Shown: positions 206-50,705 of the stretch, piece by piece
How the letters are laid out: each line of letters starts with the position of its first letter
Numbering within the stretch: the stretch's first letter is position 1
Source of the DNA: TPA_inf: Saccharomyces
Taxonomy: Eukaryota
DNA: 64,000 nt
NCBI GenBank assembly: GCA_000146045.2
Contig: BK006941.2
Coordinates: forward strand, 544,001-608,000
Direction: 5' to 3'
The notes under the pieces: generated by a model
Seen by the model: the letters and a program-made list of their open reading frames with translations, nothing else
Database searches by the model: none
What the model was told of the DNA's origin: nothing
Program-made: the position numbers and the translations under genes

Positions 206-576
206 GTACAATCTCAGAATTCTGAAGGAACACATAAAAGACAATTTATACATATTTACAGATTCTCGTGTATATAACACTCCAATCGTATTGATCAGTC
301 ATATGTTGGCTTTTTTATTTAGGCTTGAGCTCTAACTTTCCAGATGAATGACTTTTCTACTAATATATGTTAGGATTAATAGTTTTATATGTATAAAAAT
401 ATTTAGTCAGTATTTAGCTAAAAAGTTTACTTTCAAAGAATTGTCATGTTTGCAGCTAGTGCCTCTGGTCTTTTGAGTATTCCCAGCCCTTGTTTAGAGG
501 TCATCAAGAATGAACTTGAAATTAGCCGTATCAGTGGTATTAACCTCTTCTAAGAAGAGCAGAAAAAGAAAAAAAT

Positions 577-648
577 CTCCGCGACGGGGAATTGAACCCC
601 GATCTGGCACGCGACAAGCGCCCATTCTGACCATTAAACTATCACGGA
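577..648 (-). tRNA. tD(GUC): tRNA-Asp (anticodon GUC), 72 nt, no intron
   Basis: The reverse complement reads TCCGTGATAGTTTAATGGTCAGAATGGGCGCTTGTCGCGTGCCAGATCGGGGTTCAATTCCCCGTCGCGGAG. This is identical to the yeast tRNA-Asp sequence I remember. It has a cloverleaf with a GTC anticodon and a T-loop GGTTCAATTCC. Confidence 0.9.
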
Positions 649-1369
649 AGAAATATCTGTGAAATGTGACTCTTATAGCATACTATTTTAGTTATGAATT
701 GTGAAAATCCTCCCTGTCCTGCGTTCTACAATTTATTTAGTACTTGTTTGGCAAAAACGTCTCTCAGTGCCATTTACTTTGTAAAAAGTGCAGACTACAT
801 CGCATCAACGGTCATATTAGGAGCCACTTCTATTTTTAACTCAACATGATCATTCAAAAATGTCGATACACTTGCATTTTATTGTACATACTAGTTGGAA
901 GAGGCAGCGTCGATTTTGCTGAAATTTCTAGTAACTTGTAGCAGCAATACATTATATCATAAAAATAACCTGACTTGTAAAAGTTGAAACCCTAACTTTT
1001 ATTATTTCTTTCAATATTTTTCGATTAGACGTGAAAGATGACCAAGCACAACTAACAAAAAATTTGCATCCTCATAAAAAGCAAGACTTTTTGTATGTCG
1101 AAACAAAATTATTAAAAAACACGCATTAACACAGACACGAATTTGGCATACTTTCATTTTACTTTATATCTAGTGAAAAGTAGAAATTGTTTAAGGGAAC
1201 TACTTCACAGTGACCACTGATACTAGAATATGGAAATAAGAAAAGTTGCTAAGTAGGAGCCTAACAATCTTTTTTTATATTTTTCCATATTCCTTTATTG
1301 TCATGGGTCAAGACTGTATATGTTAGTGAAAGTTTTAGGGTTCTTGTGACAAACTTCACCAACATAAAC

Positions 1370-1566
1370 ATGGCCTCTTCGAAGATCCGTAGATTTTGCA
1401 TTTTTGCGGTGGTTTATGGATTCAAAGCGAGGCCTAAATTAACGATCATGTCTTTGCTATTATATCAGAGGGCATATCATTGAATTTCCGATTTCCAAAG
1501 GGAAGAAAATAAATAAAGTTGTGCTATTTCCATGCATCCTTTTTTCTTTCATTCAATGACACATAC
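1370..1566 (+). ncRNA. SNR46: Probable H/ACA box snoRNA (snR46-like), ~197 nt
   Basis: Hairpin 1 pairs GGCCTC (1372-1377) with GAGGCC (1429-1434) and has an extended stem. The hinge AAATTA at 1436-1441 fits the H box ANANNA. Hairpin 2 is closed by TCATTGAA (1477-1484) pairing with TTCAATGA (1552-1559). ACA follows immediately, about 3 nt before the predicted 3' end. The size and position between tD(GUC) and POP6 match my memory of SNR46. The 61-aa ORF at 1298..1483 overlapping it is presumably spurious. Confidence 0.5.
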
Positions 1567-1680: not shown

Positions 1681-2157
1681 TTATTGTTTGGTGAATGAAT
1701 GTAGGTTTAAATCAATGATCTCTGAATCAGAAACAAGGGTGACCAAAATTGGAACCTTGAGCCTTTCTTCCTGTAGTTCATTTCTGCCTTCTCTTTTTAT
1801 ATCGAACGATGTTAATTTATTCCACTGATAAATTTTCTTATTGTTCTTAATATAACCCTTTTTAAATATTTCCAAAATACTTAACATTTTTTGAATATGT
1901 GGACCGTAAGAGAATATACAAACTACTTGTTGTAGACCCAAACTTCTATCTGCCATGTTGATTTGTTTATCTAACTTATTTACAGACTTCTTAATGTTAT
2001 CGTTCTTCGATATGCCATGATACTGTATTGATGTACTGTTGTTACCATTATTTGCTAAGGACGGTATAACTGTTTCTTTGAGAAACCGAAGACATTGAGT
2101 GGAGGAAGAGATATCCAAATCTCTACTAATTTCATTGTAATATACGCCATTGATCAT
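1681..2157 (-). CDS. POP6: RNase P / RNase MRP protein subunit Pop6 (158 aa)
   Basis: Complete 158-aa ORF, the size of POP6 (YGR030C), in the expected position between ERV1/tD(GUC) and IMO32. Named from memory of the gene order and size. Confidence 0.7.
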   Translation of the reverse strand: MINGVYYNEISRDLDISSSTQCLRFLKETVIPSLANNGNNSTSIQYHGISKNDNIKKSVNKLDKQINMADRSLGLQQVVCIFSYGPHIQKMLSILEIFKKGYIKNNKKIYQWNKLTSFDIKREGRNELQEERLKVPILVTLVSDSEIIDLNLHSFTKQ

Positions 2158-2440
2158 TTTGATTTGCTTTTATCTTTTTTTCTTCTTCTTCTTTTCAATC
2201 TCTTCCAAACAATCTTGGCCTCATCTTCATGGAATTTTTCGAAATACTCATCAGCAAGTGTCCGATGCCTTCTCAATTTTTTCCAAGAGCGTGCGGGGGT
2301 TGGTTATCCAGTACATGTGTTGCTTGAAACTGCCAACAAAAAAGAAAAGAAAATAAGAATATATTAGTACGCCAATAGTAAACGTCACCCCGAGGTTTAA
2401 AAACTAACCGTGATATACGAGGAGAATTGGTAACGGTACA

Positions 2441-3469
2441 ATGATGATACTGGGTAAAGCCGGGATCCTGGCACAGTATGGGACAATATATGTGAGACAA
2501 AATACCATTCGGAATAATTTAAGTTCCTGCATTTTTAAGCAGTCACTATGTGCCTTTCATTCATTAGCAAAGGTGCTGCAACAAAAGCAAGTCCCACTGG
2601 ACCTTTCATATGACATAATCAAGAGAGATGCAGTAAAAACTGGGGATGAAGGGAAGCCAAGACCACCTATTATCATACTTCACGGCTTATTCGGTAACAA
2701 GCTCAACAACCGAAGCATTGGCCGTAACCTTAACAAGAAATTGGGAAGAGACGTGTATCTGCTGGACCTAAGAAATCATGGATCCTCACCACACAGTTCA
2801 GTCCATAACTACGAAGTCATGTCGGAAGACGTGAAACACTTTATCACAAAGCACGAATTAAACACCAATGGAGGCCCTATTATAATAGGACACTCAATGG
2901 GTGGTAAAGTTGCCATGATGCTGGTCCTGAAAAACCCGCAACTTTGTTCGATGTTAGTCTGTATAGAGAACGCTCCGGTGAGTTTGCGCCCTAACGCTGA
3001 GTTTGTCGAATACATCAAAGCGCTGATGGAAATCGTCAACGACAAGGGCAAAACTATCCGCACGCTGAAACAGGCTGATGAACACCTTGCAGAGAGGATC
3101 GGCGGCAATGAGCTAGTAAGGCGGTTTCTCCTAACGGCGCTGAAAAAGGTCAAGATGGACAATTCATCGTCTGTGTCGTCATATACATTCGAAGAACGAA
3201 TTCCCCTCGCAACACTGAAAGATGCCATTGTCAAAGGTGAAATTGCCGCGTGGCCCCTAGATCCTGCTCGTGAACGATGGACGCGGCCTGCGCTATTCAT
3301 CAGGGCTACTCAATCGCATTATGTGGTAGACGAGTATCTTCCGATCATCGGCGCGTTCTTTCCACGCTTTGAAACACGTGACATCGATGCGGGTCACTGG
3401 GTAAATGCGGAGAAGCCTGGGGAATGTGCCGAAAGCATCGTCGATTTTGTGGAGCGGCACGAGGATTAA
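2441..3469 (+). CDS. IMO32: Alpha/beta-hydrolase-fold mitochondrial protein (342 aa)
   Basis: Complete 342-aa ORF. It has the HGLFGN oxyanion-hole motif and the GHSMGG nucleophile elbow (GxSxG) of alpha/beta hydrolases. Size and position match YGR031W. Confidence 0.75.
   Translation: MMILGKAGILAQYGTIYVRQNTIRNNLSSCIFKQSLCAFHSLAKVLQQKQVPLDLSYDIIKRDAVKTGDEGKPRPPIIILHGLFGNKLNNRSIGRNLNKKLGRDVYLLDLRNHGSSPHSSVHNYEVMSEDVKHFITKHELNTNGGPIIIGHSMGGKVAMMLVLKNPQLCSMLVCIENAPVSLRPNAEFVEYIKALMEIVNDKGKTIRTLKQADEHLAERIGGNELVRRFLLTALKKVKMDNSSSVSSYTFEERIPLATLKDAIVKGEIAAWPLDPARERWTRPALFIRATQSHYVVDEYLPIIGAFFPRFETRDIDAGHWVNAEKPGECAESIVDFVERHED
2809..3300 (-). CDS. NAG1: Nested antisense ORF (163 aa) entirely inside IMO32; matches the length of NAG1 (YGR031C-A)
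   Basis: A 163-aa ATG-to-stop ORF on the opposite strand within the GC-rich 3' half of IMO32. NAG1 is reported as a 163-aa nested antisense gene of YGR031W (from memory). The high local GC content also inflates ORF length by chance, so confidence is moderate. Confidence 0.4.
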   Translation of the reverse strand: MNSAGRVHRSRAGSRGHAAISPLTMASFSVARGIRSSNVYDDTDDELSILTFFSAVRRNRLTSSLPPILSARCSSACFSVRIVLPLSLTISISALMYSTNSALGRKLTGAFSIQTNIEQSCGFFRTSIMATLPPIECPIIIGPPLVFNSCFVIKCFTSSDMTS

Positions 3470-3502
3470 AGGCAAGCGCCCCGGAGCAAGGTGCCAGTAG
3501 CA

Positions 3503-3523
3503 CCAGTCGGTGGCTGTGCGCTT
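3503..3523 (+). promoter_or_regulatory. Candidate calcineurin/Crz1-dependent response element (CDRE) in the GSC2 (FKS2) promoter
   Basis: The sequence CAGTCGGTGGCTGTGCGCTTG contains the Crz1 core GNGGC(T/G)(G/C)A-like GTGGCTG. It lies about 750 bp upstream of the GSC2 ATG, where the FKS2 CDRE was mapped (from memory). Confidence 0.4.
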
Positions 3524-4251
3524 GCCGTAGCACATGACATACGGACTATTGTGTGAGTGGTGATGGGGTGTAGGCAGTGCCACACCAGTTTAAAGGCCTA
3601 GTAACGGCAAATCGCCAAAAGAGATGATGCTGATGCATACGATAAGATCGTCAGTTTCACGTTCGCGGTTCGAACATGGAATTGTGGCTAAAGAAATTTG
3701 GGCGGTATGATGCAAATGAGGTGTACGTATGTATATATAGCAAAGAGTAGAATAAAATGAGATAAAGCCTCGTTCGTTCTCTCCATTTCTTCCCTGTTTC
3801 TCCTTTATTTTCTCTACTGCTTATTTCGAGTTCACCAGAGAACAAGAGAGCAGGAACGCAAAGAGTGTGTGACACGAAATTCAAGATACAAAAATAAAAG
3901 CTTACGTTGTGTATTTCAACTGGTGTGCTAAGAATAGAGTTTCATAAAGTACTGCATTTATTCATATATTATTTTTGTTATTTGTATATATACTTCACAC
4001 TTAGAGTTCTACTAAAAGTCTACCCAGCACGCATCCTTCGTTTATTTTTACATCTCTCTTTTGCTTTTCCTTTTTTTTTTTGGTGCTTGCTAGATACTAC
4101 TGAAGATCAAAGGTTACAAAGAACGCCGCATATATTTTCTGCAGGCATATTAAAGAAGTTACAAAAGGATTAATCGAAGCGCTGTTTGGATACACTCCTG
4201 TAAAGAGAAGAAAAGGAAAAAAATAAAAAGTGGACAATAAATAATTATTAA

Positions 4252-9951
<5,700 letters not shown>

Positions 9952-17350: not shown

Positions 17351-17661
17351 ACATAGTTTATTTCAATCTTGTATCTAGATGTTTTTGCTATATTTATATT
17401 TTCTGGGCCAAATCACTAACGCTTTGAAATTTCAAAAGCCAACAACGGATTTCGGACTTCATTTATGTAAATGAAAAAGAATGTGAACAAAAATTGAAAA
17501 AATTCCATATTAATGCACCTTCTAAACCTATTTGTTGAAATTGTATTTAATTCATATAATCATATTCTATTCAAAAAGAATAACAGATAGTATTAGCACT
17601 ATTTCACGTACTGCTTCTAATACTATTATCACAAAATAGACATCGGAAAACTCAAAAATAA

Positions 17662-17743
17662 CGACAACTGCAGGACTCGAACCTGCGCGGGCAAAGCCCA
17701 AAAGATTTCTAATCTTTCGCCTTAACCACTCGGCCAAGTTGCC
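17662..17743 (-). tRNA. tS(AGA): tRNA-Ser (anticodon AGA), 82 nt, class II with long variable arm, no intron
   Basis: The reverse complement reads GGCAACTTGGCCGAGTGGTTAAGGCGAAAGATTAGAAATCTTTTGGGCTTTGCCCGCGCAGGTTCGAGTCCTGCAGTTGTCG, the yeast tRNA-Ser(IGA) sequence as I remember it. The anticodon stem AAAGA/TCTTT leaves the 7-nt loop TTAGAAA with anticodon AGA. The 5' flank of this gene, at higher coordinates, holds the Ty1 and Ty2 insertions. Confidence 0.85.
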
Positions 17744-17842
17744 AATGTATACATTGCTGTTTCCTGGTTTGAAGAAGCTAATCGTGCACGTAAACAACAA
17801 TCTATACTACAAGTAAAAAAATGGGGAAAAAGATGCTGAAGG

Positions 17843-18176
17843 TGAGATATATGTGGGTAATTAGATAATTGTTGGGATTCCATTGTTGATAAAGGCTATA
17901 ATATTAGGTATACAGAATATACTAGAAGTTCTCCTCGAGGATTTAGGAATCCATAAAAGGGAATCTGCAATTCTACACAATTCTATAAATATTATTATCA
18001 TCGTTTTATATGTTAATATTCATTGATCCTATTACATTATCAATCCTTGCGTTTCAGCTTCCACTAATTTAGATGACTATTTCTCATCATTTGCGTCATC
18101 TTCTAACACCGTATATGATAATATACTAGTAATGTAAATACTAGTTAGTAGATGATAGTTGATTTCTATTCCAACA
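17843..18176 (-). repeat. Ty1 3' LTR (delta), 334 bp
   Basis: Element-orientation start TGTTGGAATAGAAATC and end ...TATCTCA. Identical to the 5' LTR except for a cluster of differences in the last ~25 nt at the U5 end. Confidence 0.85.
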
Positions 18177-18198
18177 TACCACCCATAATGTAATAGAT

Positions 18199-21100
18199 CT
18201 AATGAATCCATTTGTTAGTTAATAGTTTAAATGTTTTTATCGGAAGAGGTTTTGTCATCACATCAGCAATGTTCTTCTTGGTCTCGATGTAGTATACGTA
18301 TAGATTATTACCTGATACTTCATCTCTAAGTCTCATTGCCTTTGTGCCAAAAAATCTGTTTCTAAATTTCTCTTCATTTGTAGACTTAATTATACTGATC
18401 GTTGATCTACTATCAGTAAGTAAGCCTTTAATAATTGGTTTCTTGTTAAGTTCTTGCACAAGGTGACTGAGGTTATTCAATAGCGGAATAGCTTCACTGA
18501 CTGCGTGTATTTCTGCTTCTGTAGTTGAAGTGCATGTTAACGAAGCCTTTGTCGACTTTCCTCCAATCACTTTTCCGTTGAGTAGGAAAATGTTACCAAT
18601 TTGTGACTTGTAATATGGTTGGTTACCATATGAAGCATCGCTTATTGCGACTAGTTTATTATCTGGCTCGGTAGGTTTGTTTTTGTGCCATATCAGTTGT
18701 TTATCTCTAGTGTCCCACATGAATTGTATTAACTCATATGTCATGTCTAAAACTTGCCTAGAGGGGAATAGTATATGTTGAGCAAGTGTGTTGATGTAGT
18801 ATAGTAAGTCAAATCTAAATTTATATCCAACATATGAAGCTAGACCAATCAACTTTTGCATTTCATGTACCTTCTCTTTGTATTCATCTTCATCTATTTC
18901 TAGTTCATCCTGGTCTATATAAAGACCTGGTTGACCTGGAGCGCTAAGTTTTCTTCCTTTTGGATTCAAAGGTACGTTTAATTTGGGTATTTTCTCAGTT
19001 AATGAGTTTTCCATACCTAATTTCATGTATTTACCTCTTTGATATTTGATTTCTAAGCCAAGTATGTCGTACTGAATTTCGTTATCACTTTCACCCAGAT
19101 TTATTATCTTTGTATCGTATTGTTTCTTGAGTGTTGTTATGATTTTCTTATTTGCATTTAAGTCTTTGCTGAACAATATCATATCATCAACGAATAAGCA
19201 AATTGTTACTTGACTATTCTTAAATACGCATGACCATCCACGAACTTCTTCCATACCACACTGTTTTATCAGGTATGATTTGATAGTTTCGTACCAGTTC
19301 GCTCCACTTTGTTTCAATCCATAAAGTGATTTCTTCAAACGTATCAACTTATCATTCATTCCTAAATGTGGTGGAGGTCTTATGTATAATTCTTCTTTGA
19401 TGTCTGCATACAAATATGCCGAAGATATGTCTAATTGTGTAATATAGTAGTTATTGTCTAATGCAAGTGACAGGGATGTCATTAATGCATAGTGATGTAC
19501 GGTATTGGATTGCATGCCTGAGTCGTAAGTGTCAGGATGCTGAATATCACCTCTTGCAACAAATCTAGCTTTATGAGTACCGTCACGTTTCCTGTTGAAG
19601 ATAAACATTGAATTTATTACTCTTTTAGGGTCTATTTCTTTTCTGTCATAATATTTGTCAGTGTCCCAAGTATTCATTTTCAATAGTTGGTTGACTTCTT
19701 TGTGGTATGCTTCGATATATTTTTCCTTTTCTTTAATATCTTTATTATAGGTGATTGCCTCATCGTATCTTAAGGTTGTCCGTATTGGTTTGATTGATTT
19801 TACTGCTTTTACAGCTGCAATCAGGTGAATTCGTTTCTTCGATCTCGGAGGTTCTAAACTACGCATATTCTTAGTATTCCATGTGTCTCGTGATACCTTA
19901 ATTTCAGTTTCATTATCTTCTAATGATCTTTTCTTACTGTTGATAGTAGTATAGGCATTAGAGTCACCAATACCACCCAAACTGGAATTAGTTTGATGAG
20001 AATTTATCGGTGGGAGTTCTTTAAATGGGTCAGGGAATTCGGTAGGAGATTCTGGAGGTAGATCAGGGAGTGGGAGATCAGCGATGATAGATTCCTCGGT
20101 ATTCTGTTCAGAAACAGTAGTTGGCGTTTTGATAGGAACAATATTGTGCGATGAATTATTTTCCGGTGGAGAAGCATCGATTGAAGGTGAACGGTGTATA
20201 ATCCTTTTCTCAGTCTCTTGGTCACTTATCTGCGGAACAGTTTTGTTGTTGGTACCACCCGTACTGGATATTGGTACGTTTGTATGATTAGTCTCATTTT
20301 CACTGTACGAGTCTGAGTGTCTGAAATCTTTAGATTTACTGGCGTGCGACGACTCATGTGTGTTAGATTGGGACATGGGAGCAAGTAAAGGAACATTTAA
20401 TTTATGCATACCACCCGAACCGGTACTCTCGATATTGGAAATTTGGGGGGTGCTAGATCTCTTCTTTGATGGAAGAATATTAGATTCAGATATGTTGGGG
20501 TCAACTTCTCTGGGTGCGCGAATATTGGTTTTAGAAACACGTTTCGAATCTTCAGTATGAGTTGACGGAGGTGTGGAATCGGTTGGACTCACAGCTTTTG
20601 AAAGGACATTTCTCGGTTGCTCAGGATGTAGTTCAATGTCGGATTGGAAGTCATGGTCAGATTCTATGTTAAGATCATTGGATTCTTGGATCTCATTTGA
20701 CGCAATGAACGAATGATATGAAGCAGTTAAACGGTTTAAGTCTTCATCGAAAGTGAGTGCGTCGTAATTGAATTGATCTAATCTGGATTCCTTGCCCTGA
20801 AGAATAACATAGTTAGTTGTATCTACTGTCTTCTTTAAGGATGGAAGATAGATGATATATCCATAAGAGTTTCGAGACGGATGTAGAGCGTAGCCTGGGA
20901 TGCCACGAGGATGTATTTTGGAGTTAGGGTTGTGATCATTGACGATAACAGGTTGACCGAAAGGTAACAAAGTACTGATATCAAGTCCTGCCAAGCCAGC
21001 ATGTTGTCTTGCAGATTTTTTGCTTTTAGGTGAAGCTAGTGAATTTCTCACAATAGTAGAAAATTCGATTGCAGAGAACCATAAATGGTTCGGTAAACCA

Positions 21101-22165
21101 CTACATTGCAGTTGAGTACGGCAGTCATCTAATAAGGTACGGTTTAGCCGTTCAGCGACTCCATGTGCTCGGGAATCCGCTGTGGTTGTATAGCATGGAG
21201 TTATACCATTTTTTTCAAGGAATTTATGGAGAGTTCTGTTAGTATACTCAGAACCACGGTCCATTTGTATAACCAAGACACTGGCCTGAAACTGGTTTTT
21301 AATAAAAGCTAGTATCGTAGTAAAAACATCGAGGATAGAGTCCTCGCGACGGTCGTGTAATGGATAAACCCAACGGAATTTTGTTGTCTCATCAGTAAAT
21401 GAGATGAAATAGGATGGTGCACTATTTGGTAGGTTGTGAACTGGACCAAATATGTCAGTATGTAGGTATTGAAAGGGTTCGTATGAATTTTGGTATTTTA
21501 GTCGTGAACCTTTGATATGTCTGTGTTTGGTGCTTTTGCCGATTAAACAATCAGGACATTGATAGTCAATAGCACTAGACCAGTCGACATCTGATTCGTT
21601 AAAATACGTGATGGTGTTATTTTTAAGTGAGTATCGAATTGTCTGTGCATTGGCATGCGCAAGCATTCGATGAATGAAAGGATAAGGATATTTGCGTGTA
21701 CTTTCACTTGTATGGACATTATTGATGGTGGGTACGGAGATATTTGATGGAAGCAAGTACTTTTTAGATACCCAGTAAAAGTCTCCATATTTTACGATAG
21801 GTGCAAGTACAGTGCCGTCAGATCGTTCTAAGACGTTTTTGGTAAAGCATGCTGTGATATCTACTGCAGCCAATTCATTCAAACTGAGTAAGTCATAGGC
21901 TATGTTAGGAGTGTGCAATACCTTTATTGATGTTTTGGTGTTGTCCTGGAAGTGAAATTGTAGGTCACCAATAGCGTTAATTGGTATATTTCTTTTTTGA
22001 GCATCAACTACGTTTATGCCAGGATTAGATGATGCTGAGTGTATGTGGTGAGCAGATCTTATAAGGGTTCGTGATGCTCCTGAATCGAGAAGGAGGTGTC
22101 CAGGGAGTTCATCATCAGAATGATTAGTGTGATTTACCGTAGATTCAGTAAGTTCCTGGCCTAAG
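18199..22165 (-). CDS. TYB: Ty1 TYB (Pol: protease-integrase-reverse transcriptase/RNase H), expressed by +1 ribosomal frameshift from TYA
   Basis: The frameshift heptamer CTTAGGC lies at 22159-22165 (minus strand) in the TYA/TYB overlap. Downstream is a continuous pol frame to 18199. It carries the integrase zinc-binding (HHCC-like) and D,D-35-E motifs, and the RT motif YVDDM is present as FVDDM. Confidence 0.85.
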
Positions 22166-23467
22166 ATGAAGGTCGTGCTTATTGTTCAATTGAATCGGTT
22201 CAGTAGTTGATTTACTGATGGAATCGTTGTCCGTGCTGGGAGAGTTATTAGATGTGGATACATTGTGAGCCCTGGCTGTTTTCGATTTCGAATTATTTGT
22301 TTTTTGAGGATTCCGAGCTATAACTTTGGGTTTGGTTGTATTCGTATAGCTGCGAGAATCATTCTTCTCATCACTCGGATTTCTCCTGTAATTAGGTTTG
22401 CTGTTTCTCGATCCCTGTTGTTCTTCATAAATAGCATGGATATCTAAGAACAGTTCAGCGACTGTCATATTTAGATGTCGATGACGTGTGTAGCGTAAAA
22501 ATTTATATTCGCCAGATAGACCTCTCATAATTAATTGGCATGCGACCTTGTTATTGATATGAATGCCATTATTGTTCAGTCTGTCGATAATGTTTGTGAC
22601 TTTTGTTTCAAATGCATCTGCAGGTGTACTGCCATTATATTGCAAATTTGCCAGGGTCACAATGTCGTTTGCCTCTTGGGTATCAGATTGCATTTTTTCA
22701 ATACTTTTGGAAAGAATTTTCATGATATCCGTATAATCAACGGATAGGATGTCTTTGACCCAGGTAGGTAGGAATTGAGAGGGAGCAAATATTTGAAAAG
22801 TGTTATACAAGAAGGTGAGTTCATCATCAGTGATCTGACGTACGGGTTTTCCGTTTACTGTCGGAATAATACCACCGAGATTCGAGTTTTGTAAAAATTT
22901 GATGTATGTTTTAACCCAATTTGGAAAGTCATTAGGTGAGGTTAACATTGGTGGTGGTCTGACATATTTTTTAGTGGATGTCATATCAGAGTCCGCTGAG
23001 GATGAATCAGTAAATGTATTACCTGACTCAGGTGATGGAGTGCTCAGAGGCGTTCCAACTGATGATGGATACTGCGGAAACTGTGATTGTGGCCCAGGTG
23101 GAAAGTACATAGGCGACATTTGATAAGGTGTATACGGAATCATAGATGGGTGTCCGTAAAATGACCAACCAGATGGATTGGCTTGGTTTTGGGTCATCAT
23201 GCACTGCTGTGGGTACGGCCCATTCTGTGGAGGTGGTACTGAAGCAGGTTGAGGAGAGGCATGATGGGGGTTCTCTGGAACAGCTGATGAAGCAGGTGTT
23301 GTTGTCTGTTGAGAGTTAGCCTTAGTGGAAGCCTTATCATATTCTTGAATTTTGGAAGCTGAAACGTCTAACGGATCTTGATTTGTGTGGACTTCCTTAG
23401 AAGTAACCGAAGCACAGGCGCTACCATGAGATATATGTGAATGTTGAGATAATTGTTGGGATTCCAT
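22145..23467 (-). CDS. TYA: Ty1 TYA (Gag, 440 aa)
   Basis: [39 protein letters not shown]... is the Ty1 Gag sequence. The ORF length is 440 aa. Confidence 0.9.
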
Positions 23468-23760
23468 TGTTGATAAAGGCTATAATATTAGGTATACAGA
23501 ATATACTAGAAGTTCTCCTCGAGGATTTAGGAATCCATAAAAGGGAATCTGCAATTCTACACAATTCTATAAATATTATTATCATCGTTTTATATGTTAA
23601 TATTCATTGATCCTATTACATTATCAATCCTTGCGTTTCAGCTTCCACTAATTTAGATGACTATTTCTCATCATTTGCGTCATCTTCTAACACCGTATAT
23701 GATAATATACTAGTAATGTAAATACTAGTTAGTAGATGATAGTTGATTTCTATTCCAACA
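23427..23760 (-). repeat. Ty1 5' LTR (delta), 334 bp; contains the TYA start codon
   Basis: Bounded by the PBS complement on one side and the GAAGG duplication on the other. The TYA ATG (minus strand, 23467) lies within U5. Confidence 0.85.
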
Positions 23761-24740
23761 GAAGGAGATAAAAATTTCAAAATGTTTCTATGATAAATTT
23801 ATAATGAATTTATAATAATGTTTTGGGCTGTTTCCCTTTAGATTATTTAGCTTATCGTACATAATCGCACATAATCAGACTCTTTATTATATATAATTAA
23901 ATATTTCGAGATTTACATACTAGTGGTTACTTAAAAGTGTAATCGCAAATTATATCAGAAATGAACAAAGATACGCAGTCCAAATTATTGACAACAACCA
24001 GCATATGTACTTAGTAATATTTTATGAAGTTACTAAATCAAGATTAGAAACGTAAAAATAGAATAACATGATCAAGTTCAAGTCTGAATTTCCTTTAATA
24101 TTTGGATAAGTAAATTCACTACGTGACATGATTGGTTGGTGCCAACATAACACAATTTTAACATTATGTAATCTACAGGATAAGTAGCATTCTGTGTAAC
24201 AAATTGTAGTAAGTCTGGCAAATCTCTACTCTCTTAAAGGTATAAGGATTGTCCAGATACCCGATATTACTAGAGGCCGTCATGTATAAAATGTGGTAAC
24301 GTAAAATATACACTTAACAGAAAGTTAAAAAAGGTTAAGTTATACGTGGCTTTCTCCTTTTTTCTTTTCAAGTACCTACCTGCTGTTAATTAATAGTTAA
24401 TATTGATCACGAGAATAACAGATCTTCATATACAGTATAAGAGAGATCTATAAAACTAAAAATGGATAGATTTTGATGAAATTCGTGGGCCGATATACTC
24501 TTCAGTTTGTCATTCATGATTTATTATAATATAGACTTCATAAGTGAACTTTGTAGTTTCTGGTGATTACTATAGCGATACTTTTCGAATAGTCACAACA
24601 AGAGCTTCTGCTTCACGTTTTTTGGAAACAAAAGACTGAGGAGGGGCTAAATATAAATACTGATTCATATTACGAAAGGAAATAAAAAAATAACTATATG
24701 TAGATTTATATTAATATTGTATAATTGCAGTCCTTGTATT

Positions 24741-25072
24741 TGAAGAGAATGTGGATTTTGATGTAATTGTTGGGATTCCATTGTGATTAAGGCTATAATA
24801 TTAGGTATGTAGATATACTAGAAGTTCTCCTCGAGGATTTAGGAATCCATAAAAGGGAATCTGCAATTCTACACAATTCTATAAATATTATTATCATCAT
24901 TTTATATGTTAATATTCATTGATCCTATTACATTATCAATCCTTGCGTTTCAGCTTCCACTAATTTAGATGACTATTTCTCATCATTTGCGTCATCTTCT
25001 AACACCGTATATGATAATATACTAGTAACGTAAATACTAGTTAGTAGATGATAGTTGATTTTTATTCCAACA
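24741..25072 (-). repeat. Ty2 3' LTR, 332 bp
   Basis: Delimited by the TSD and the TG...CA termini. It differs from the 5' LTR at 5 or more positions. Confidence 0.8.
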
Positions 25073-25094
25073 TACCACCCATAATGTAATAGAT

Positions 25095-28000
25095 CTAATG
25101 AATCCATTTGTTAGTTAATAGTTTAAATGTTTTTATCGGAAGAGGTTTTGTCATCACATCAGCAATGTTCTTCTTGGTCTCGATGTAGTATACGTATAAA
25201 TTATTACCTGATACTTCATCTCTAAGTCTCATTGCCTTTGTGCCAAAAAATCTGTTTCTAAATTTCTCTTCATTTGTAGACTTAATTATACTGATCGTTG
25301 ATCTACTATCAGTAAGTAAGCCTTTAATAATTGGTTTCTTGTTAAGTTCTTGCACAAGGTGACTGAGGTTATTCAATAGCGGAATAGCTTCACTGACTGC
25401 GTGTATTTCTGCTTCTGTAGTTGAAGTGCATGTTAACGAAGCCTTTGTCGACTTTCCTCCAATCACTTTTCCGTTGAGTAGGAAAATGTTACCAATTTGT
25501 GACTTGTAATATGGTTGGTTACCATATGAAGCATCGCTTATTGCGACTAGTTTATTATCTGGCTTGGTAGGTTTGTTTTTGTGCCATATTAATTGTTTAT
25601 CTCTAGTGTCCCACATGAATTGTATTAACTCATATGTCATGTCTAAAACTTGCCTAGAGGGGAATAGTATATGTTGAGCAAGTGTGTTGATGTAGTATAG
25701 TAAGTCAAATCTAAATTTATATCCAACATATGAAGCTAGACCAATCAACTTTTGCATTTCATGTACTTTCTCTTTGTATTCATCTTCATCTATTTCTAGT
25801 TCATCCTGGTCTATATAATGACCTGGTTGACCTGGAGCTCTAAGTTTCTTTCCTTTTGGGTTCAAAGGTACGTTTAGTTTGGGTAATTTTTCTGTCAAGG
25901 ATTTTTCCATACCTAATTTCATGTACTTGCTTCTTTGATATTTGATCTCTAATCCAAGTATGTCGTACTGAATTTCGTTATCACTTTCACCCAGATTTAT
26001 TATCTTTGTATCGTATTGTTTCTTGAGTGTTGTTATGATTTTCTTATTTGCATTTAAGTCTTTGCTGAATAATATCATATCATCAACGAATAAGCAAATT
26101 GTTACTTGACTATTCTTAAATACGCATGACCATCCGCGAACTTCTTGCATGTCGCAACAATTTATTAAATATGATTTAATGGTTTCATACCAGTTTGCAC
26201 CACTTTGTTTCAAACCATAGAGTGATTTTCTCAAACGTAGTAATTTATCATTCAAACCTAAATGTGGTGGAGGTCTTATGTATAATTCTTCTTTGATATC
26301 AGCATATAAGTAAGCAGAGGATATGTCCAGCTGTGTGATATAATAGTCGTTGTCTAATGCGATTGACAGTGACGTCATCAGTGCATAGTGATGTACGGTA
26401 TTGGATTGCATATCAGAATCATATGTATCGGGGTGTTGAATGTCGCCTCTTGCAACAAATCTAGCTTTGTGTGTACCATCACGTTTCTTGTTAAATATAA
26501 ACATTGAGTTTATTACTTTTTTAGGATCTATGTCATTTCTATCATAATATTTGTTTGTATCCCAAGTGTTCATTTTCAATAGTTGGCTAATTTCTTTATG
26601 ATAAGCTTCAACATATCTGTCTTTTTCTTTGTTGTCTTTATTATATGTAATTGCTTCATCATATCTTAAGGTCGTTCGAACTGGTTTGATCGATTTCACT
26701 CCTTTTATTGCTGCAATTAAATTTATGCGTTTCTTCGATCTTGGTGGTTCCAGACTTCTCATATTCTTATTATTCCATGTGTCTCGGGATACCTCAATTT
26801 CAGTTTCATTATCTTCTAATGATCTTTTCTTACTTTTGGTAGTAGTCAGAACATTAGAATCATCCATACCACCCAAACTGGAATTAGTCTGACGAGAGTG
26901 TATGTGTGGAATATCTTTTGAAACATCAGAAGTGTCCGTAGGAGATTTATGGGTTAAGTCAGGAAGTGGGAGGTCGTCAAGAATAGAATCAGCCGTAACA
27001 TTTTTTGAGGATTTGTCAGGCATTATATTAGGAGTCGCATGGTCAGAAGATCGATATTCTGGCGGATCCGTATCAATGGAGGGTGTATTATCACATACAG
27101 CCTTTGTTTCTATGGAGATGATGGGAGTAGTGGATTCACTGTTGGACGAACGGTCATCTATTGAGGGCGTACTATTTGTAGTCCTGTATTTGATATTTGT
27201 ATCACTATTTCGTTGAATATATGGTTCCTCCGTACCACCCAAACGTGTAGTTTTGATGTTTTCAAGTCCATAATTAACTCTATCCTGTGAGGTCAAATCA
27301 ATCATCTCATTGGTACTACCAGGTCGGTTTTGGTTTCGTGCAGTGAAGGTAGACGAGTGTCTAGGTGAAGTAGTATCTGATTCAACGGTACCACCCATTT
27401 CGGTACTCTCTTTATTAATGATATGGGGTGTACGAGATCGTATAGTAGATGGAAGAATATTGTATTCAGATATGTCGGCATCAACTTCTTTTGGTGCACG
27501 TACTTTTTGGACTGGTTCCTTGTCTAATTGTAAAGGGTTTATTGATTGGGACGAGAAGTCGTTCACTAGAGGATCAGAGTTTATTTCAATCTCCGATTGA
27601 TAGTCATGATCAGATTCTGTATTTTGATCATATGACTGCTCTGTTTCATTTTGTTCAATAAAAGATTGGTTATGGGCTGTTAAACGATTGAGATCATCAT
27701 CAAAAGTGAGTGTATCGTAGTCGAACTGGTCCAATTTCGTTTGCTTGTTTTGTAATATAACGTAATTGGTAGTATCTACTGTCTTTTTTAATGATGGAAG
27801 ATAGATAATATAGCCATAAGAGTTTCGTGACGGATGTAAGGCGTAACCTGGAATGCCACGAGGATGTATTTTCGAGTCGGGATTATGGTTGTTAACTATA
27901 ACCGGTTGACCGAAAGGTAGTATAGTAGTAATGTCCAGTCCAGCTAAACCTGCATGTTGTCTTGCAGATTTATCGTTTTTTTGGTGAGACTAATGAATTT

Positions 28001-29119
28001 CTGATTATAGTAGAAAATTCGACTGCTGAGAACCATAGATGATTTGGTAGACCACTGCAATGAAGCAGTGTGCGACAATCGTTTAATAAAGTACGATTTA
28101 ATCGTTCAGCGACACCGTGTGCTCTAGAATCTGCCGTGGTTGTATAGCATGCAGTAATACCTCTGTTCGTAAAGAACTTATGAAGAGTTTTGTTAGTGTA
28201 CTCGGAGCCACGATCCATCTGGATAACTAGAACGCGAGCATTGAATTGGTTCTTAATAAATGCTAATATCGATGTAAAAACATTGAGGATAGATTCTTCA
28301 CGACGGTCGTGTAATGGGTACACCCATTGGAATCTGGTTTTCTCATCTGTAAACGATATAAAGTAAGAAGGTGCACTTTTCGGTAAGTGATGTACAGGAC
28401 CAAATATATCGGTGTGCAAGTACTGAAAAGGCTCATATGATTCTTGGTACTTTAGTCGTGATCCTTTGACATGTCTATGTTTCGTGCTTTTGCCGATTAG
28501 ACAGTCAGGACATTGATATGTGCTAGCGTTAGACCATTCAATATCCGATTCCTTCAAATATGTAACTGCATTCTTCTTAAGAGACTTCTGAATACTTCGG
28601 AAGTTAGCATGTCCAAGCATTCGATGTATTAACGGATATGGATATTTATTTACGCTTTTGCTTTTGTTGACGTTGTTTATTGTTAGCTTTGAAATGTGCG
28701 AAGGAATTAGGTATTTTTTAGATAACCAGTAAAAGTCTCCATGTTTGACTATGGGAGCTAGTACTGTACCATCCGATCTTTCTAAAGTGTTTCTGGTAAA
28801 GCAGGCAGTAATATTTTGATTAGCCAGCTCACTCAAACTTAATAGATCATAGGCTATGTTTGGTGTGTGTAGTGCTTTTATTGATGTTTTGGTGCCGTTC
28901 TGAAAGTTGAAGTGAAGATTACCAATGGCATTTATAGGAATGTCTTGTTTTTGAGCATCGACTATGTTTATTTCAGAATTGGGTGTTGCATGGTGTAAAT
29001 AATGGGCTGATCTGACAAGCGTTTGCGAAGCTCCTGAATCAATAAGAAGGTGATCAGGTAGTTCGTCATTCGAGTCTATTGTGTGTGTTGGCTTAGATTC
29101 TTTCTGTTGCTGGCCTAAG
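25095..29119 (-). pseudogene. Ty2 TYB (Pol) disrupted by a +1 frameshift in an A7 run in the integrase region
   Basis: The frameshift heptamer CTTAGGC is present at 29113-29119. The pol frame runs to ...NSLVSPKKR and a stop at 27970-27972. The downstream continuation ([50 protein letters not shown]...) is in the -1 frame, starting within the A7 run at 27976-27982. Removing one A restores a single long pol ORF. Confidence 0.75.
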
Positions 29120-30409
29120 ACTAAGTTCGTCGTCATCGCTTAAGTATTGTGATGAAACGGTTGATTCATTAATGTGATCATTGTTCACCCTTGAGAATTT
29201 ACTAGATGTAGCAATATTGTGAGCTTTTGCTGCTCTTGGTTTTGAACTATTTGTTCTATGATAATTACGAGTTGTAACCTTTGTGTTAGTCGTGTTTGGA
29301 GATGTGCGAGAAACATTTTTGTATTCGCTGTGTTGTTTGTATTGGGACGGTTTATTTAGATTCATGATTTTATTTTCGTCATATATTAATTGAATTTCAG
29401 CGAATAATTGGGAAAGTTTCATGTTCGTTTTGGTACGATATTGATTACGTAGGTATTTGAAGTCACCGGATAGACCTTTAAGTATTAGTTGACAGGCCAA
29501 TCTGTCGCTAACATTGATATTGTTTTCTTTTAGCCTCTGAATGATCGTACTGACTGTAATTTCAAATGTATCAGCAGATGTACTTCCGTCGTACTCAAGG
29601 TTGGCAAGAGCTATCCAATCCTTTAATTCTTGATTGTTAGTTTGCATTTTGGACACACTTTTACAAAGGACTGTAAGGATGTCAGCATAATTAATTTCTA
29701 AAATTTGTTTTACCCATGTTGGCAATAAATGAAATGGGGCAAATGCTTGGAAGGTATTGTATATATACGCATGTTCTTCATAAGTCATTTGTCTTTTGAT
29801 TTCACCCTGGTCATTTGGAATGATGTCACCGAGATTAGAGTTCTTCAAAAATCTGATGTAAAATTTAACCCATGTAGAAAAGTTTTCTTCTGATGTTAAA
29901 GTGTGTGGTGGTAAGACGTTATTTCCCACCTTTGTCTTAGCTTGAGGTATTTCAGAGTGTTGATTTTTTAAATCGATTGGATCAGGTGAGGAAGTACTCA
30001 GTGGTGGGATATACTGTGGCAACGGATAGTGTGGGTCCGGTTGATAATACGCAGGTGACGTTTGATAATGTGAACACGTCATCATAGATGGTTGTTGGTA
30101 ATGTGCCCAGTTAGAGGCCATAGCTTTGTTTGGGGTCATCATGCCGTGCTGTTGGTACTGTCCATTCTGTGGAGGTGGTACTGAAGCAGGTTGAGGAGAG
30201 ACATGATGATGGTTCTCTGGAACAGCTGATGTCCCAGGTGTTGTCTCTTGTTGAGAATTAACCTTAGTGGAATCTCTATCAAATTCCGGTAAATTGGAAG
30301 CTGAAACGGCTAACGGATCTTGATTTTATGGGACTTCCTTAGAAGTAACCGAAGCATAGGCGCTACCATGAAGAGAATGTGGATTTTGATGTAATTGTTG
30401 GGATTCCAT
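29093..30409 (-). pseudogene. Ty2 TYA (Gag, 438 codons) inactivated by a single nonsense codon at codon 28
   Basis: The frame from the ATG at 30409 reads [27 protein letters not shown], then TAA (plus-strand tta at 30326-30328). I recall TCA at this position in intact Ty2. The same frame continues open to the normal Gag stop, so the Ty2-Gag-like 349-aa ORF at 29093..30142 in the track lies on this frame. Total 439 codons including the stop. Confidence 0.8.
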
Positions 30410-30700
30410 TTTTTATAAGGCGATAATATTAGGTATGTAGATATACTAGAAGTTCTCCTCGAGGATTTAGGAATCCATAAAAGGGAATCTGCAATTCTAC
30501 ACAATTCTATAAATATTATTATCATCATTTTATATGTTAATATTCATTGATCCTATTACATTATCAATCCTTGCGTTTCAGCTTCCACTAATTTAGATGA
30601 CTATTTTTCATCATTTGCGTCATCTTCTAACACCGTATATGATAATATACTAGTAACGTAAATACTAGTTAGTAGATGATAGTTGATTTTTATTCCAACA
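30369..30700 (-). repeat. Ty2 5' LTR, 332 bp
   Basis: Delimited by the PBS complement and the TSD. It contains the TYA ATG (minus strand 30409). Confidence 0.8.
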
Positions 30701-47877: not shown

Positions 47878-49595
47878 ACGACGAAGCACGTGACACGTTC
47901 CCTTCAAACATCACAATTATTTAAGCGAGACTAATATATATGTTTAGCGAAAAAAAAGGCCAAAAAAACTAGTAAATATACAAAGCAGAGTATTTTTGGC
48001 TCTTGTCCACATTGGATAAGAGAATATTTATTTTTCACACAGAAAAAAAAGTTATATACGTATCTCTAAGAAAGTCAAAGACAAATTACGTAGAATGTGA
48101 TTCATTCCCATTTCGCCCGTACACTCTCTGTCTCTGTCTCTGTCCCAAACTTCCCTTCCTATACGTATTCATAATCTGCTTAAACGTCAACAGTAGTTTC
48201 GGAACATCTTCATACGTAGGGAATACGACTTTTTTCTTTTCACCTGCAGCTTGAGCCAAACTAAAACTGGGATCCGGATAAACTATTAATAAAGGATCGC
48301 AAAGTCCATACGCCAGTTTAATGGGAATGAAATGATATTGCGAAGTGACGTCAAGAATCGACTTTAAGCTATATCCGAAGTCAAGAAAGCCGAACCTTAC
48401 ATGCGGTCGGAAAGCAAACGAGGAGATTAGATTGGTTTTCATATCCGCTAAATTTTCTTTTGATTTTACTTTGGCTTAATCTAATGCATGTATATCGGAA
48501 GAAGCAACCGATCTGGCCCAGTTGAGTCGTGCTACCTTAGTCATGCCCAGGAAAACCGGATTCCTTCTTTTCATTATGACATCCGTTTAGGTCAATAGGC
48601 TTTTTTTTCTCTCGCCCGTGCCTCTCCGTGTTCGATGAATGTGCAGCTTGCCTCCGAGCGGGCGAGCCACCTCGAGCGGGTGACGAAATAGTGGAAAAGA
48701 AACGGGGAAGCAAAACTGTGCTGTTCTGGCCCGCAGCGGACGAACGTCATTAAAGGCGCTCCATTTCTGTCGTGAGGGTCTTTCGGTGCGGTGGTGAGGC
48801 TGCGTAAACAAGCTTGCTCTTCATACCCCTCCCGTGGAGCTAGTTCGGAAGGACTATTGGCGCATCTTCTGTTGAGAGGTTCCGTAATTCTCCGTAACGT
48901 CCCGTTCACCACTTTGCATGTGCTCTCACGTACGGCCGTCTCTTTTCGGCCTTCGGCCCGTTCCGATTTTTGTACCCCTTACGTGCTTTGAATTCTAGAA
49001 GGCATCTCCTCTCCGATGGCTTGGTACAGGGAGCACTAGGGAAATTGCACATGGAAGTATCTGGAATACAAAGTTTTTGAAAAGAAAAGCCGAGCGTAAT
49101 ATTGGGACAATACCCAGTTCTCAGCCTTTTCAGCGCGGGTATGAGACAGCTTGCAACAGGTAAAAGGAAGTTAGAAGGGTTAGGTGAAGGGAACGATGAT
49201 GCTGCCTGAGAACAAAAATGCAGCTTCATGTTACATACAATAAAGGAAGGATAATTAAGGGGACCATGCAATAAGGGACAACTTAATTTTGGAAAAATCG
49301 GAGCTTAGTTGCATCTACCTACTAATACTTTCCCCAAAGAATAATAATACGAGTACAATACATATATATATATATATATAATATACACATGTAAGTGATG
49401 ACTATTCTTAATACAAAAAAATTTCCCTTTTATAATAACTATTCTTAGCATTAAATAACCCGTTACTGACAAAAAGCATATAACATAGGACTCAAGATCG
49501 ACTCTCATACCCTCCGAATCAAATTCTCACTCGTATACGCAATCATTTAAATAAGCACATCATTATCAGCATATACCGAATAATAAAAAGCAAAA

Positions 49596-50705
49596 ATGTA
49601 TACAAAACTAAGATCTATACAATCAGGAACATTTAGCACAGTTTATAAAGCATGGAGTACTACACATAACCGCTACGTCGCTTTAAAGATTACTCCTAAA
49701 TACAAAACTTCAGAAGCCAACATGAAGAACGAGTATGATGTAATGAAGATTTTGAGTTCTTGTAATCCTCACCCCAACATCTGTTCGATGCTCGACTTTT
49801 ACACGGATGACTCGTACTACATCATGGTGCTAGAATACTGCGAATGTGGTGATCTTTATGACTTTCTAGATATTGCTAAGAGTCAAGGTAGCCCGTCGTC
49901 TCCATCTTTGATTCAAATTGATATGCAAAAGATAATCAAACAACTGTGCTCAGCAATCAGCTTTGCTCACAGCTTGGGTATTGCTCATCGTGATATCAAA
50001 CCAGAAAATATTTTGCTAACGATAAATGGTGACATCAAGTTGGCAGACTGGGGTCACGCTATCCAATCCCCTAAATCTAACGACTTCCAGATTGGTACCG
50101 ATAATTACAGGGCGCCAGAAACTTTCTCTGGCCGCGTTAGTAACTCTTGTTTTAAGAAGAATTTCGATCGGTCATCGGCTCCATTGTATAACACATACCA
50201 AGCTGACTATTGGTCATTGGGTGCCACCATATTTTATCTGATGTTCGGCGATTGCCTTTTTAGAGTCTCCAAATCAAAGAAGGTTCAGCATCTAAAAAAT
50301 TTCGATGAGTTTGAAAAAGATCCATTTGCATTCATTTACAGGAAATACGTAGTACCAAGGCTCTCCTGTGGTTACAATGATGAAGAAGACCTACACGTTA
50401 GCCTGCAGCATACGAGGCAGTACATATGGCAAGATCTACCCGACATTTATGATGTCTTCCATTTGTGCAAGATTATGGTTGATACCTTATTAAAGGTATC
50501 GAACGCTAAAGAGAGGTCGATGGAGAATTTCATCAATGAAGTTGATTCTGCATGGAACAAAGATAGCTCGATGGACAGCTGCTTCTCGTACCAAAATAAG
50601 ATTGATCTGTTTTGGGAACAGTGGTCTGTGAACACGGAAACAGTACCAGCAAAGTTCCAATTGAAAAATTTTGAGAAACCTTGCCTAATTCAAGATGGAA
50701 AATAA
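49596..50705 (+). CDS. FMP48: Serine/threonine protein kinase (369 aa)
   Basis: Kinase subdomains are present: the VALKI lysine, HRDIKPENILL, DWG in place of DFG, and the APE motif. Size and position match YGR052W. Confidence 0.7.
   Translation: MYTKLRSIQSGTFSTVYKAWSTTHNRYVALKITPKYKTSEANMKNEYDVMKILSSCNPHPNICSMLDFYTDDSYYIMVLEYCECGDLYDFLDIAKSQGSPSSPSLIQIDMQKIIKQLCSAISFAHSLGIAHRDIKPENILLTINGDIKLADWGHAIQSPKSNDFQIGTDNYRAPETFSGRVSNSCFKKNFDRSSAPLYNTYQADYWSLGATIFYLMFGDCLFRVSKSKKVQHLKNFDEFEKDPFAFIYRKYVVPRLSCGYNDEEDLHVSLQHTRQYIWQDLPDIYDVFHLCKIMVDTLLKVSNAKERSMENFINEVDSAWNKDSSMDSCFSYQNKIDLFWEQWSVNTETVPAKFQLKNFEKPCLIQDGK

Follow-up and report, generated by a model that had tools for sequence, protein, structure and literature searches.

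The antisense gene NAG1 of Saccharomyces cerevisiae: a long reading frame probably explained by a GC-rich island and frame geometry within IMO32

Introduction

When a long open reading frame (ORF) lies antisense within a conserved yeast gene, does it encode a second protein kept by selection, or has the sequence of the host gene left it open? NAG1 (YGR031C-A), nested inside IMO32 (YGR031W), raises this question. We analysed the locus in 64,000 nucleotides (nt) of Saccharomyces cerevisiae chromosome VII (GCA_000146045.2, contig BK006941.2, positions 544,001 to 608,000); this whole stretch is referred to as the window, and coordinates are counted from its first base. An earlier note, made from the letters of this DNA, had pointed to a 163-amino-acid (aa) minus-strand ORF in a part of IMO32 rich in guanine and cytosine (GC), had remarked that its length equals that of NAG1, and had suggested that the atypical composition could indicate an unusual evolutionary origin. 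We find that NAG1, as a long ORF, is probably best explained by a GC-rich island together with the geometry of the two reading frames rather than by a conserved second protein, and that it is evolutionarily unstable. The features on which this argument depends are as follows:

2441..3469, plus strand: IMO32 (YGR031W), 342 aa, host gene of NAG1 (ORF list)
2809..3300, minus strand: NAG1 (YGR031C-A), 163 aa, ATG-started, wholly nested antisense in IMO32
3298..3300, minus strand: NAG1 start codon; sense CAT, made of the last base of Phe286 (TTC) and two bases of Ile287
2890..2892, minus strand: NAG1 codon 137, TGT (Cys), opposite Gly150(GGA)-His151 of the IMO32 motif GHSMG
2700..3600: island of high GC (about 0.45-0.55), extending over IMO32's 3′ half and on for about 130 nt beyond its stop

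Results

Identity of the antisense frame

The 163-aa ORF is present on the minus strand at 2809..3300, complete and ATG-started, as the earlier note had it. In an exact-sequence look-up, its translation (2812..3300, minus strand) proved to be Nag1p of S. cerevisiae S288C (UniProt NAG1_YEAST), residue for residue, and the same sequence occurred on 211 contigs. Given this exact match, the ORF is, as judged by its sequence, the gene NAG1/YGR031C-A, already annotated and published. The identification thus goes beyond the equal length first remarked on, and the nesting in YGR031W is borne out. Compared with the annotated gene, we found the identical 163-aa sequence in the same nested antisense position and no sequence difference.

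The host gene IMO32 encodes a mitochondrial alpha/beta hydrolase (Pfam Abhydrolase_1, E = 1.8e-39, with matches to named Imo32p homologues), carries the nucleophile-elbow motif G150-H-S152-M-G154 and ends in a stop codon at 3467-3469. Nag1p itself is a basic protein of 17.5 kDa (isoelectric point 9.6; 17% Ser), in which residues 77-95 form a single moderately hydrophobic stretch (19-residue Kyte-Doolittle mean 1.8). A search of Pfam found no family for it, and AlphaFold2 run on the single sequence gave no confident fold (mean predicted local distance difference test score 33), which is weak evidence. Published accounts of NAG1 place it antisense within YGR031W/IMO32 and tie it to cell-wall biogenesis and stress; the dependence of its expression on the cell-wall integrity pathway (Slt2/Rlm1) and its cell-wall phenotype are given there by secondary citation.

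The NAG1 frame in other yeasts

We compared the orthologous loci of S. paradoxus (L001-L003), S. mikatae (L006), S. kudriavzevii (L004 and L008), S. uvarum (L005 and L009) and S. eubayanus (L007); S. arboricola and S. jurei lie outside this comparison set. The gene order Alba-domain gene, IMO32, FKS2 was kept at all retrieved Saccharomyces loci. The overlap of NAG1 and IMO32 holds no insertions or deletions (indels), so the NAG1 frame can be read directly across species:

S. paradoxus: TGA at NAG1 codon 137, ORF of 136 aa
S. mikatae: stops in the NAG1 frame at codons 73 and 137
S. kudriavzevii: stops in the NAG1 frame at codons 97 and 137
S. eubayanus: stops in the NAG1 frame at codons 37 and 137
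S. uvarum L005 (GCA_947243795.1): ATA in place of ATG (INSAG, with MNSAG elsewhere), TGA at codon 37
S. uvarum L009 (GCA_947243805.1): intact, 163 aa, annotated as SUVC_07G2700

Among the Saccharomyces genomes compared, the 163-codon frame is therefore intact solely in S. cerevisiae and S. uvarum L009. The two S. uvarum strains differ in this respect, so that the equivalent ORF is polymorphic in that species (L005 2501-3523 versus L009 2332-3354). The two S. uvarum IMO32 alleles differ at about 4.4% of nucleotides. The earlier note had named two observations that would tell against the antisense gene, namely that antisense transcripts or ribosome footprints are lacking and that stops interrupt the frame in close relatives while IMO32 is conserved; the second of these is what the comparison found.

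The changes that open and close the frame can be followed in IMO32. Codon 137 is TGA in S. paradoxus, S. mikatae, S. kudriavzevii and S. eubayanus, TGT in S. cerevisiae and TGG in S. uvarum. The Gly150 codon of IMO32 is correspondingly GGA in S. cerevisiae and GGC in S. uvarum, and the silent change from GGT to GGA is found only in S. cerevisiae. Since codon 137 is read as TGT in one species and TGG in the other, the final 27 codons were gained independently through silent changes in IMO32. The remaining stops arise from silent as well as amino-acid changes in IMO32. The start codon is also exposed, as a silent change from TTC to TTT at Phe286 abolishes the NAG1 ATG and is seen as the ATA of S. 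uvarum L005. NAG1 is thus taxonomically restricted with identifiable enabling mutations, as is characteristic of a proto-gene.

We extended the comparison to three outgroups, in which stops were found in both species of lower GC content and none in that of the highest:

Naumovozyma dairenensis: two stops in the equivalent frame, segment GC 0.35
Torulaspora delbrueckii: four stops in the equivalent frame, segment GC 0.45
Lachancea nothofagi: no stops and an ATG at the homologous place, segment GC 0.56

Judged from these alignments, the distant yeast L. nothofagi has an independent NAG1-like ORF, and the conservation of Nag1-like motifs appears as the mirror image of conserved IMO32 motifs. The longest antisense ORF in the L. 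nothofagi IMO32 homologue (L013 1501-2604, GC 0.57) has 165 aa. A further contig (L010 14-493; Logan SRR31481547, S. uvarum-like) carries a NAG1-like ORF of 159 aa, of which about 118 residues match S. uvarum before the sequence diverges; the divergence resembles a frameshift, IMO32 was not called on that contig, and an assembly error or a disrupted IMO32 allele is possible.

These data disagree with the high conservation of NAG1 reportedly claimed in the experimental paper on the gene by Ma, Dobry, Krysan and Kumar (2008, Eukaryot Cell 7:1289). They agree with a 2025 core-gene-set preprint that had already noted the weak conservation of NAG1; what is added here is the polymorphism of the NAG1 ORF within S. 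uvarum.

Why the frame is open

Codon position 3 of NAG1 faces codon position 3 of IMO32. In this arrangement, an antisense stop requires T/C+TA or T+CA on the sense strand across a codon boundary, and is made by Tyr after an IMO32 codon ending in T or C, or by His or Gln after a codon ending in T. Most potential stop dicodons are shielded by the IMO32 protein because the preceding residue is Lys or Glu, whose codons always end in A or G. When all dicodons in the ORF were listed, three were silently free to create a stop: Gly150-His151, Pro166-Gln167 and Ser247-Tyr248. High GC further makes stops rare, since stop codons are AT-rich.

To put a number on chance, we calculated analytically, with the codon usage of the window's genes, that all three sites would be open with a probability of 0.12, or 0.05 when TTC (giving the ATG) is also required. 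In 8-12% of trials, permuting the synonymous codons of IMO32 yielded an ATG-started antisense ORF of 163 aa or longer. When the 21 large genes of the window were permuted, 0.23 genes were expected to carry such an ORF of at least 163 aa (1 observed) and 2.26 genes one of at least 100 aa (2 observed). IMO32 had the highest chance probability of an antisense ORF among these 21 genes, and NAG1 is the longest nested antisense ORF in them, with a runner-up of 104 aa. Given the IMO32 protein and codon usage, the length of NAG1 lies within chance expectation, though it is locally conspicuous. By rough extrapolation, dozens of such ORFs would be expected in a genome of about 6,000 genes.

Tests for selection on the second frame

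If the NAG1 frame were held by selection, synonymous divergence (dS) in IMO32 might be reduced where the two genes overlap. No reduction was found between S. cerevisiae and S. paradoxus (0.60 in the overlap versus 0.47 outside), nor in the mean of 21 pairs (1.15 versus 0.79). Nucleotide identity was 0.861 inside the overlap and 0.859 outside, and amino-acid identity in the NAG1 frame was always below that of IMO32 over the same bases (e.g., 0.817 versus 0.885). Third-position differences that alter NAG1 and are silent in IMO32 were not depleted, with 7 observed and 4.5 expected between S. cerevisiae and S. paradoxus, and 10 observed and 12 expected between S. cerevisiae and S. uvarum L009.

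The naive ratio of nonsynonymous to synonymous divergence (dN/dS) in the NAG1 frame is about 0.15. We rejected this value as a sign of selection because the third positions of both frames coincide; the constraint on IMO32 alone yields such values. None of the three signs of long-term purifying selection on a dual-coding region (a frame intact across the sister species, reduced dS, depletion of silent changes) was found, and from the sequences compared there is no apparent sign of constraint on the NAG1 frame at the limited power of these tests.

The GC-rich island

The earlier note had described a sharp change of composition over 2900-3550, and the figures agree: GC is 0.518 there against a window mean of 0.376, which places the segment in the top 0.2% of 650-nt windows. 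The GC-rich run that it quoted lies at 3245-3293 with one mismatch (GCCGCG, not GGCGCG). Only two regions of the window exceed a GC of 0.46, and 2900-3550 is one of them and the most GC-rich. IMO32 as a whole has a GC content of 0.466 and a third-position GC content of 0.50, the highest of the 21 large ORFs of the window, and the enrichment is seen at both amino-acid-determining and third codon positions. The island occupies the same place in S. cerevisiae, S. paradoxus, S. mikatae, S. kudriavzevii, S. uvarum and S. eubayanus; across these six species its GC peaks at 0.55-0.64, and the first ~130 nt past the IMO32 stop reach 0.58-0.71.

Two further minus-strand ORFs run across the IMO32 stop:

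3293..3583, minus strand: 96-aa ORF, GTG start, spanning the IMO32 stop; 80 aa from its ATG (3293..3535)
3345..3533, minus strand: 62-aa ORF, GTG start, no ATG, spanning the IMO32 stop

Both exist and cross the stop where the earlier note had placed them. What did not hold up is their standing as long ORFs of interest, as they are GTG-started and not conserved; the GTG starts were admitted by the bacterial start rule of the ORF tool and are not valid under yeast initiation rules. The 62-aa ORF, having no ATG, was therefore discarded as a gene candidate, and the 96-aa ORF was discarded for its GTG start, its lack of conservation and the indels of lengths other than multiples of three in the intergenic alignment. 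Both are chance products of GC-rich sequence. Other Saccharomyces species carry their own minus-strand ATG ORFs over the IMO32 stop, species-specific and mutually non-homologous, of 101-155 aa. The individual ORFs seen over the stop measure 146 and 155 aa in S. uvarum, 136 aa in S. kudriavzevii, 101 aa in S. mikatae and 88 aa in S. eubayanus, and the 80/96-aa ORF of S. cerevisiae has no homologue among those of the other species (L005, L006, L007, L008). The GC island yields long ORFs in general, and these differ by species.

The second GC-rich region of the window lies at 48190-49370 (up to 0.515), between a 187-aa ORF and a 369-aa kinase-like gene at 49596. The ORFs in it are all short or lack an ATG start and lie outside any large gene, namely 118 aa from an ATG at 48086..48442 (minus strand), 106 aa from a GTG and 121 aa from a TTG, which look like chance ORFs in GC-rich DNA.

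The FKS2 regulatory region beside NAG1

The next gene downstream is GSC2/FKS2, and its regulatory DNA adjoins the NAG1 start:

4264..9951, plus strand: GSC2/FKS2, beta-1,3-glucan synthase subunit, 1895 aa (ORF list)
3336..4263, plus strand: FKS2 promoter as used in published -928..+1 reporter constructs (PMC3233502), converted from the FKS2 ATG at 4264
3504..3524, plus strand: Crz1-binding element CAGTCGGTGGCTGTGCGCTTG, FKS2 -760..-740 of that gene's calcineurin-dependent response element, or CDRE; exact match

The sequence and FKS2 coordinates of the Crz1 element are published (PMC3233502). The earlier note had named GSC2 as the next gene and placed a CDRE-like site at 3503-3523, and the published element indeed matches at 3504-3524. 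On the NAG1 strand the element lies about 205 nt upstream of the NAG1 ATG, and its core GGTGGCTGTGC is largely conserved in the Saccharomyces alignment. The distal end of the FKS2 promoter (3336) falls within coding sequence of IMO32 and is 36 nt away from the NAG1 ATG, and putative Mig1 sites lie at ~3417 (inside IMO32) and ~3479. The extent of the promoter constructs and the putative Mig1 site within IMO32 suggest that the last ~130 nt of IMO32 also serve in the regulation of FKS2. The distal FKS2 regulatory region thus forms the 5′ flank of NAG1. A scan of 2400-4300 against Rfam found no RNA family. In a report on yeast expressing plant DCL4, small RNAs of both strands are described at IMO32/NAG1, supporting sense and antisense co-transcription.

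Weighing the explanations

The account that we consider likely would run as follows. In the GC-rich island, which takes in both IMO32's 3′ half and the distal FKS2 region, AT-rich stops would be scarce, and the frame with coinciding third positions would leave three silently variable, stop-prone dicodons, so that the NAG1 frame would open, close and change length through changes in IMO32. The NAG1 transcript is probably a divergent product of the FKS2 distal region at 3336-3600, which holds the Crz1 element and the putative Mig1 sites, in which case NAG1 would be stress-regulated alongside FKS2 whether or not its protein matters. Several points weigh against this account. The Nag1p cluster holds 28 S. 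cerevisiae variants, and all 15 of those listed have 163 aa, in a listing biased to ORFs carried over intact by annotators. The selection tests are low-powered, with 35-64 informative sites and dS near saturation for distant pairs, and a young species-restricted gene can work without deep conservation. Since four species have the codon-137 stop in common, the ancestor of the genus may already have carried a 136-aa version begun at the same ATG. Finally, the canonical Rlm1 site CTAWWWWTAG has no match within 12 kilobases of the locus, and the relaxed pattern TAWWWWTAG matches solely a TATA-like run at 3732-3740, leaving the idea of a shared promoter without support from an Rlm1 motif.

One rival possibility is that NAG1 is a genuine, selected de novo gene overprinted on IMO32, its product a cell-periphery protein of the cell-wall integrity response, which we regard as doubtful. 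The literature on Nag1p, by secondary citation, speaks for it, as do the uniform length of the listed variants (15 of 28), residues 77-95 as one possible membrane-spanning segment, the identifiable enabling mutations and the GC-rich site by a divergent promoter, a typical birthplace of de novo genes (10.1101/119768). It is opposed by the loss of the frame in five of the seven other Saccharomyces genomes examined, an intact S. uvarum copy that is itself polymorphic within its species (L005 versus L009), the unreduced dS and undepleted NAG1-altering silent changes, an ORF length within chance expectation, and, as weak evidence, the failure to find a Pfam family or a confident fold by single-sequence AlphaFold2. 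A species-specific function of Nag1p in S. cerevisiae, for which there is one experimental paper, is likewise a tentative proposition. It is unlikely, moreover, that NAG1 is a repeatedly opening and closing proto-gene with an ancestral frame of ~136 codons, expressed under cell-wall stress, whose S. cerevisiae version has acquired a real, species-specific role. The 163-codon extension would then have arisen twice independently, through GGT to GGA in S. cerevisiae and through GGT to GGC in one lineage of S. uvarum, the frame would have closed in the remaining Saccharomyces lineages, and the neighbouring FKS2 upstream region would drive each open version under cell-wall stress.

The functional unit could instead be a non-coding antisense transcript, started divergently in the FKS2 upstream region and running through IMO32, that modulates the expression of IMO32 or FKS2, with an incidental ORF and with nag1 phenotypes reflecting effects in cis, which seems rather improbable to us. 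In its favour, the NAG1 5′ flank coincides with the distal regulatory DNA of FKS2, whose published -928 boundary stands 36 nt away from the NAG1 ATG, small RNAs of both strands imply sense and antisense co-transcription, and constraint at the coding level was not seen. Against it, the point mutations for which Ma et al. 2008 reported phenotypes are said to map over 960 nt upstream of the FKS2 ATG. We find it scarcely credible that horizontal transfer or introgression introduced the GC-rich 3′ half of IMO32 and brought the antisense ORF along. The one argument for such a foreign origin is the local contrast of composition (0.52 versus 0.38). The same GC gradient and gene order recur in six Saccharomyces species, and an island position common to all six indicates an ancestral feature; IMO32 homologues are full-length across Ascomycota and align end to end with no break at the composition change; the island runs beyond the stop into the FKS2 regulatory region; and in the GC-rich part dS is raised, not lowered, in keeping with a local bias of mutation or recombination. 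We therefore set aside the foreign origin, and with it the unusual evolutionary origin proposed in the earlier note, as already contradicted by conserved island position and gene order. The island and the raised dS would fit local mutation bias or GC-biased gene conversion, such as at a recombination hotspot.

Other features of the window

Upstream of IMO32 lies the Alba-domain gene that completes the conserved gene order, and at the orthologous loci the FKS1_dom1 and Glucan_synthase Pfam families were matched in the GSC2/FKS2-equivalent neighbours. Outside the locus, we recorded small RNA genes and a pair of retrotransposons:

1681..2157, minus strand: Alba-domain gene, 158 aa (Pfam)
576-649, minus strand: tRNA-Asp(GTC), upstream of the Alba-domain gene
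1370-1566, plus strand: H/ACA small nucleolar RNA snR46 (228 bits), upstream of the Alba-domain gene
17661-17744: tRNA-Ser(AGA), just upstream of the Ty pair
17900-30520, minus strand: two Ty-type long terminal repeat (LTR) retrotransposons in tandem

The Ty elements were recognised by a TYA capsid ORF (22145..23467) and integrase/reverse transcriptase ORFs (18199..21666 and 25095..27398), and their LTRs are marked by a repeated pair of motifs (17899/17983, 23483/23567, 24796/24879 and 30424/30507). In the second element the pol region is broken into ORFs of 767, 388 and 349 aa.

Discussion

NAG1 has counterparts among antisense ORFs opposite conserved yeast genes. YKL104W-A (opposite GFA1) and YER014C-A/BUD25 (opposite HEM14) have been proposed to be dubious, and in NAG1, as in these two, conservation mirrors the host gene and the host frame dictates the pattern of substitution (PMC12157680). 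NAG1 differs from YKL104W-A in that its third positions coincide with those of the host, whereas in YKL104W-A the host wobble sites hit codon position 1. With coinciding third positions, substitutions in NAG1 would look coding-like without selection, and NAG1 would thus be harder to unmask than YKL104W-A.

De novo genes are known in yeast, MDF1, antisense to ADF1, being one. Vakirlis et al. (bioRxiv 10.1101/119768) described how yeast de novo genes and proto-genes arise in GC-rich, divergently transcribed regions. NAG1 resembles the genes described there in being taxonomically restricted and GC-rich, in lying beside a divergent promoter and in having enabling point mutations; it is unlike them in its position within conserved coding sequence rather than in intergenic DNA.

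As a discovery, the ORF has little value, the gene being annotated and published and its weak conservation already noted. Its use lies partly in a caution: a chance ORF in an antisense frame whose wobble positions coincide with those of the host inherits the host's conservation and a low apparent dN/dS, and for this reason such ORFs can pass for real genes. Beyond this, the locus shows a conserved GC island beside a stress-regulated promoter that repeatedly produces long species-specific ORFs. If the protein does have a function, NAG1 would offer a compact and workable locus in which to test how genes are born by overprinting; and if it is a proto-gene that has opened and closed repeatedly, it would represent a traceable gene birth inside an enzyme gene.

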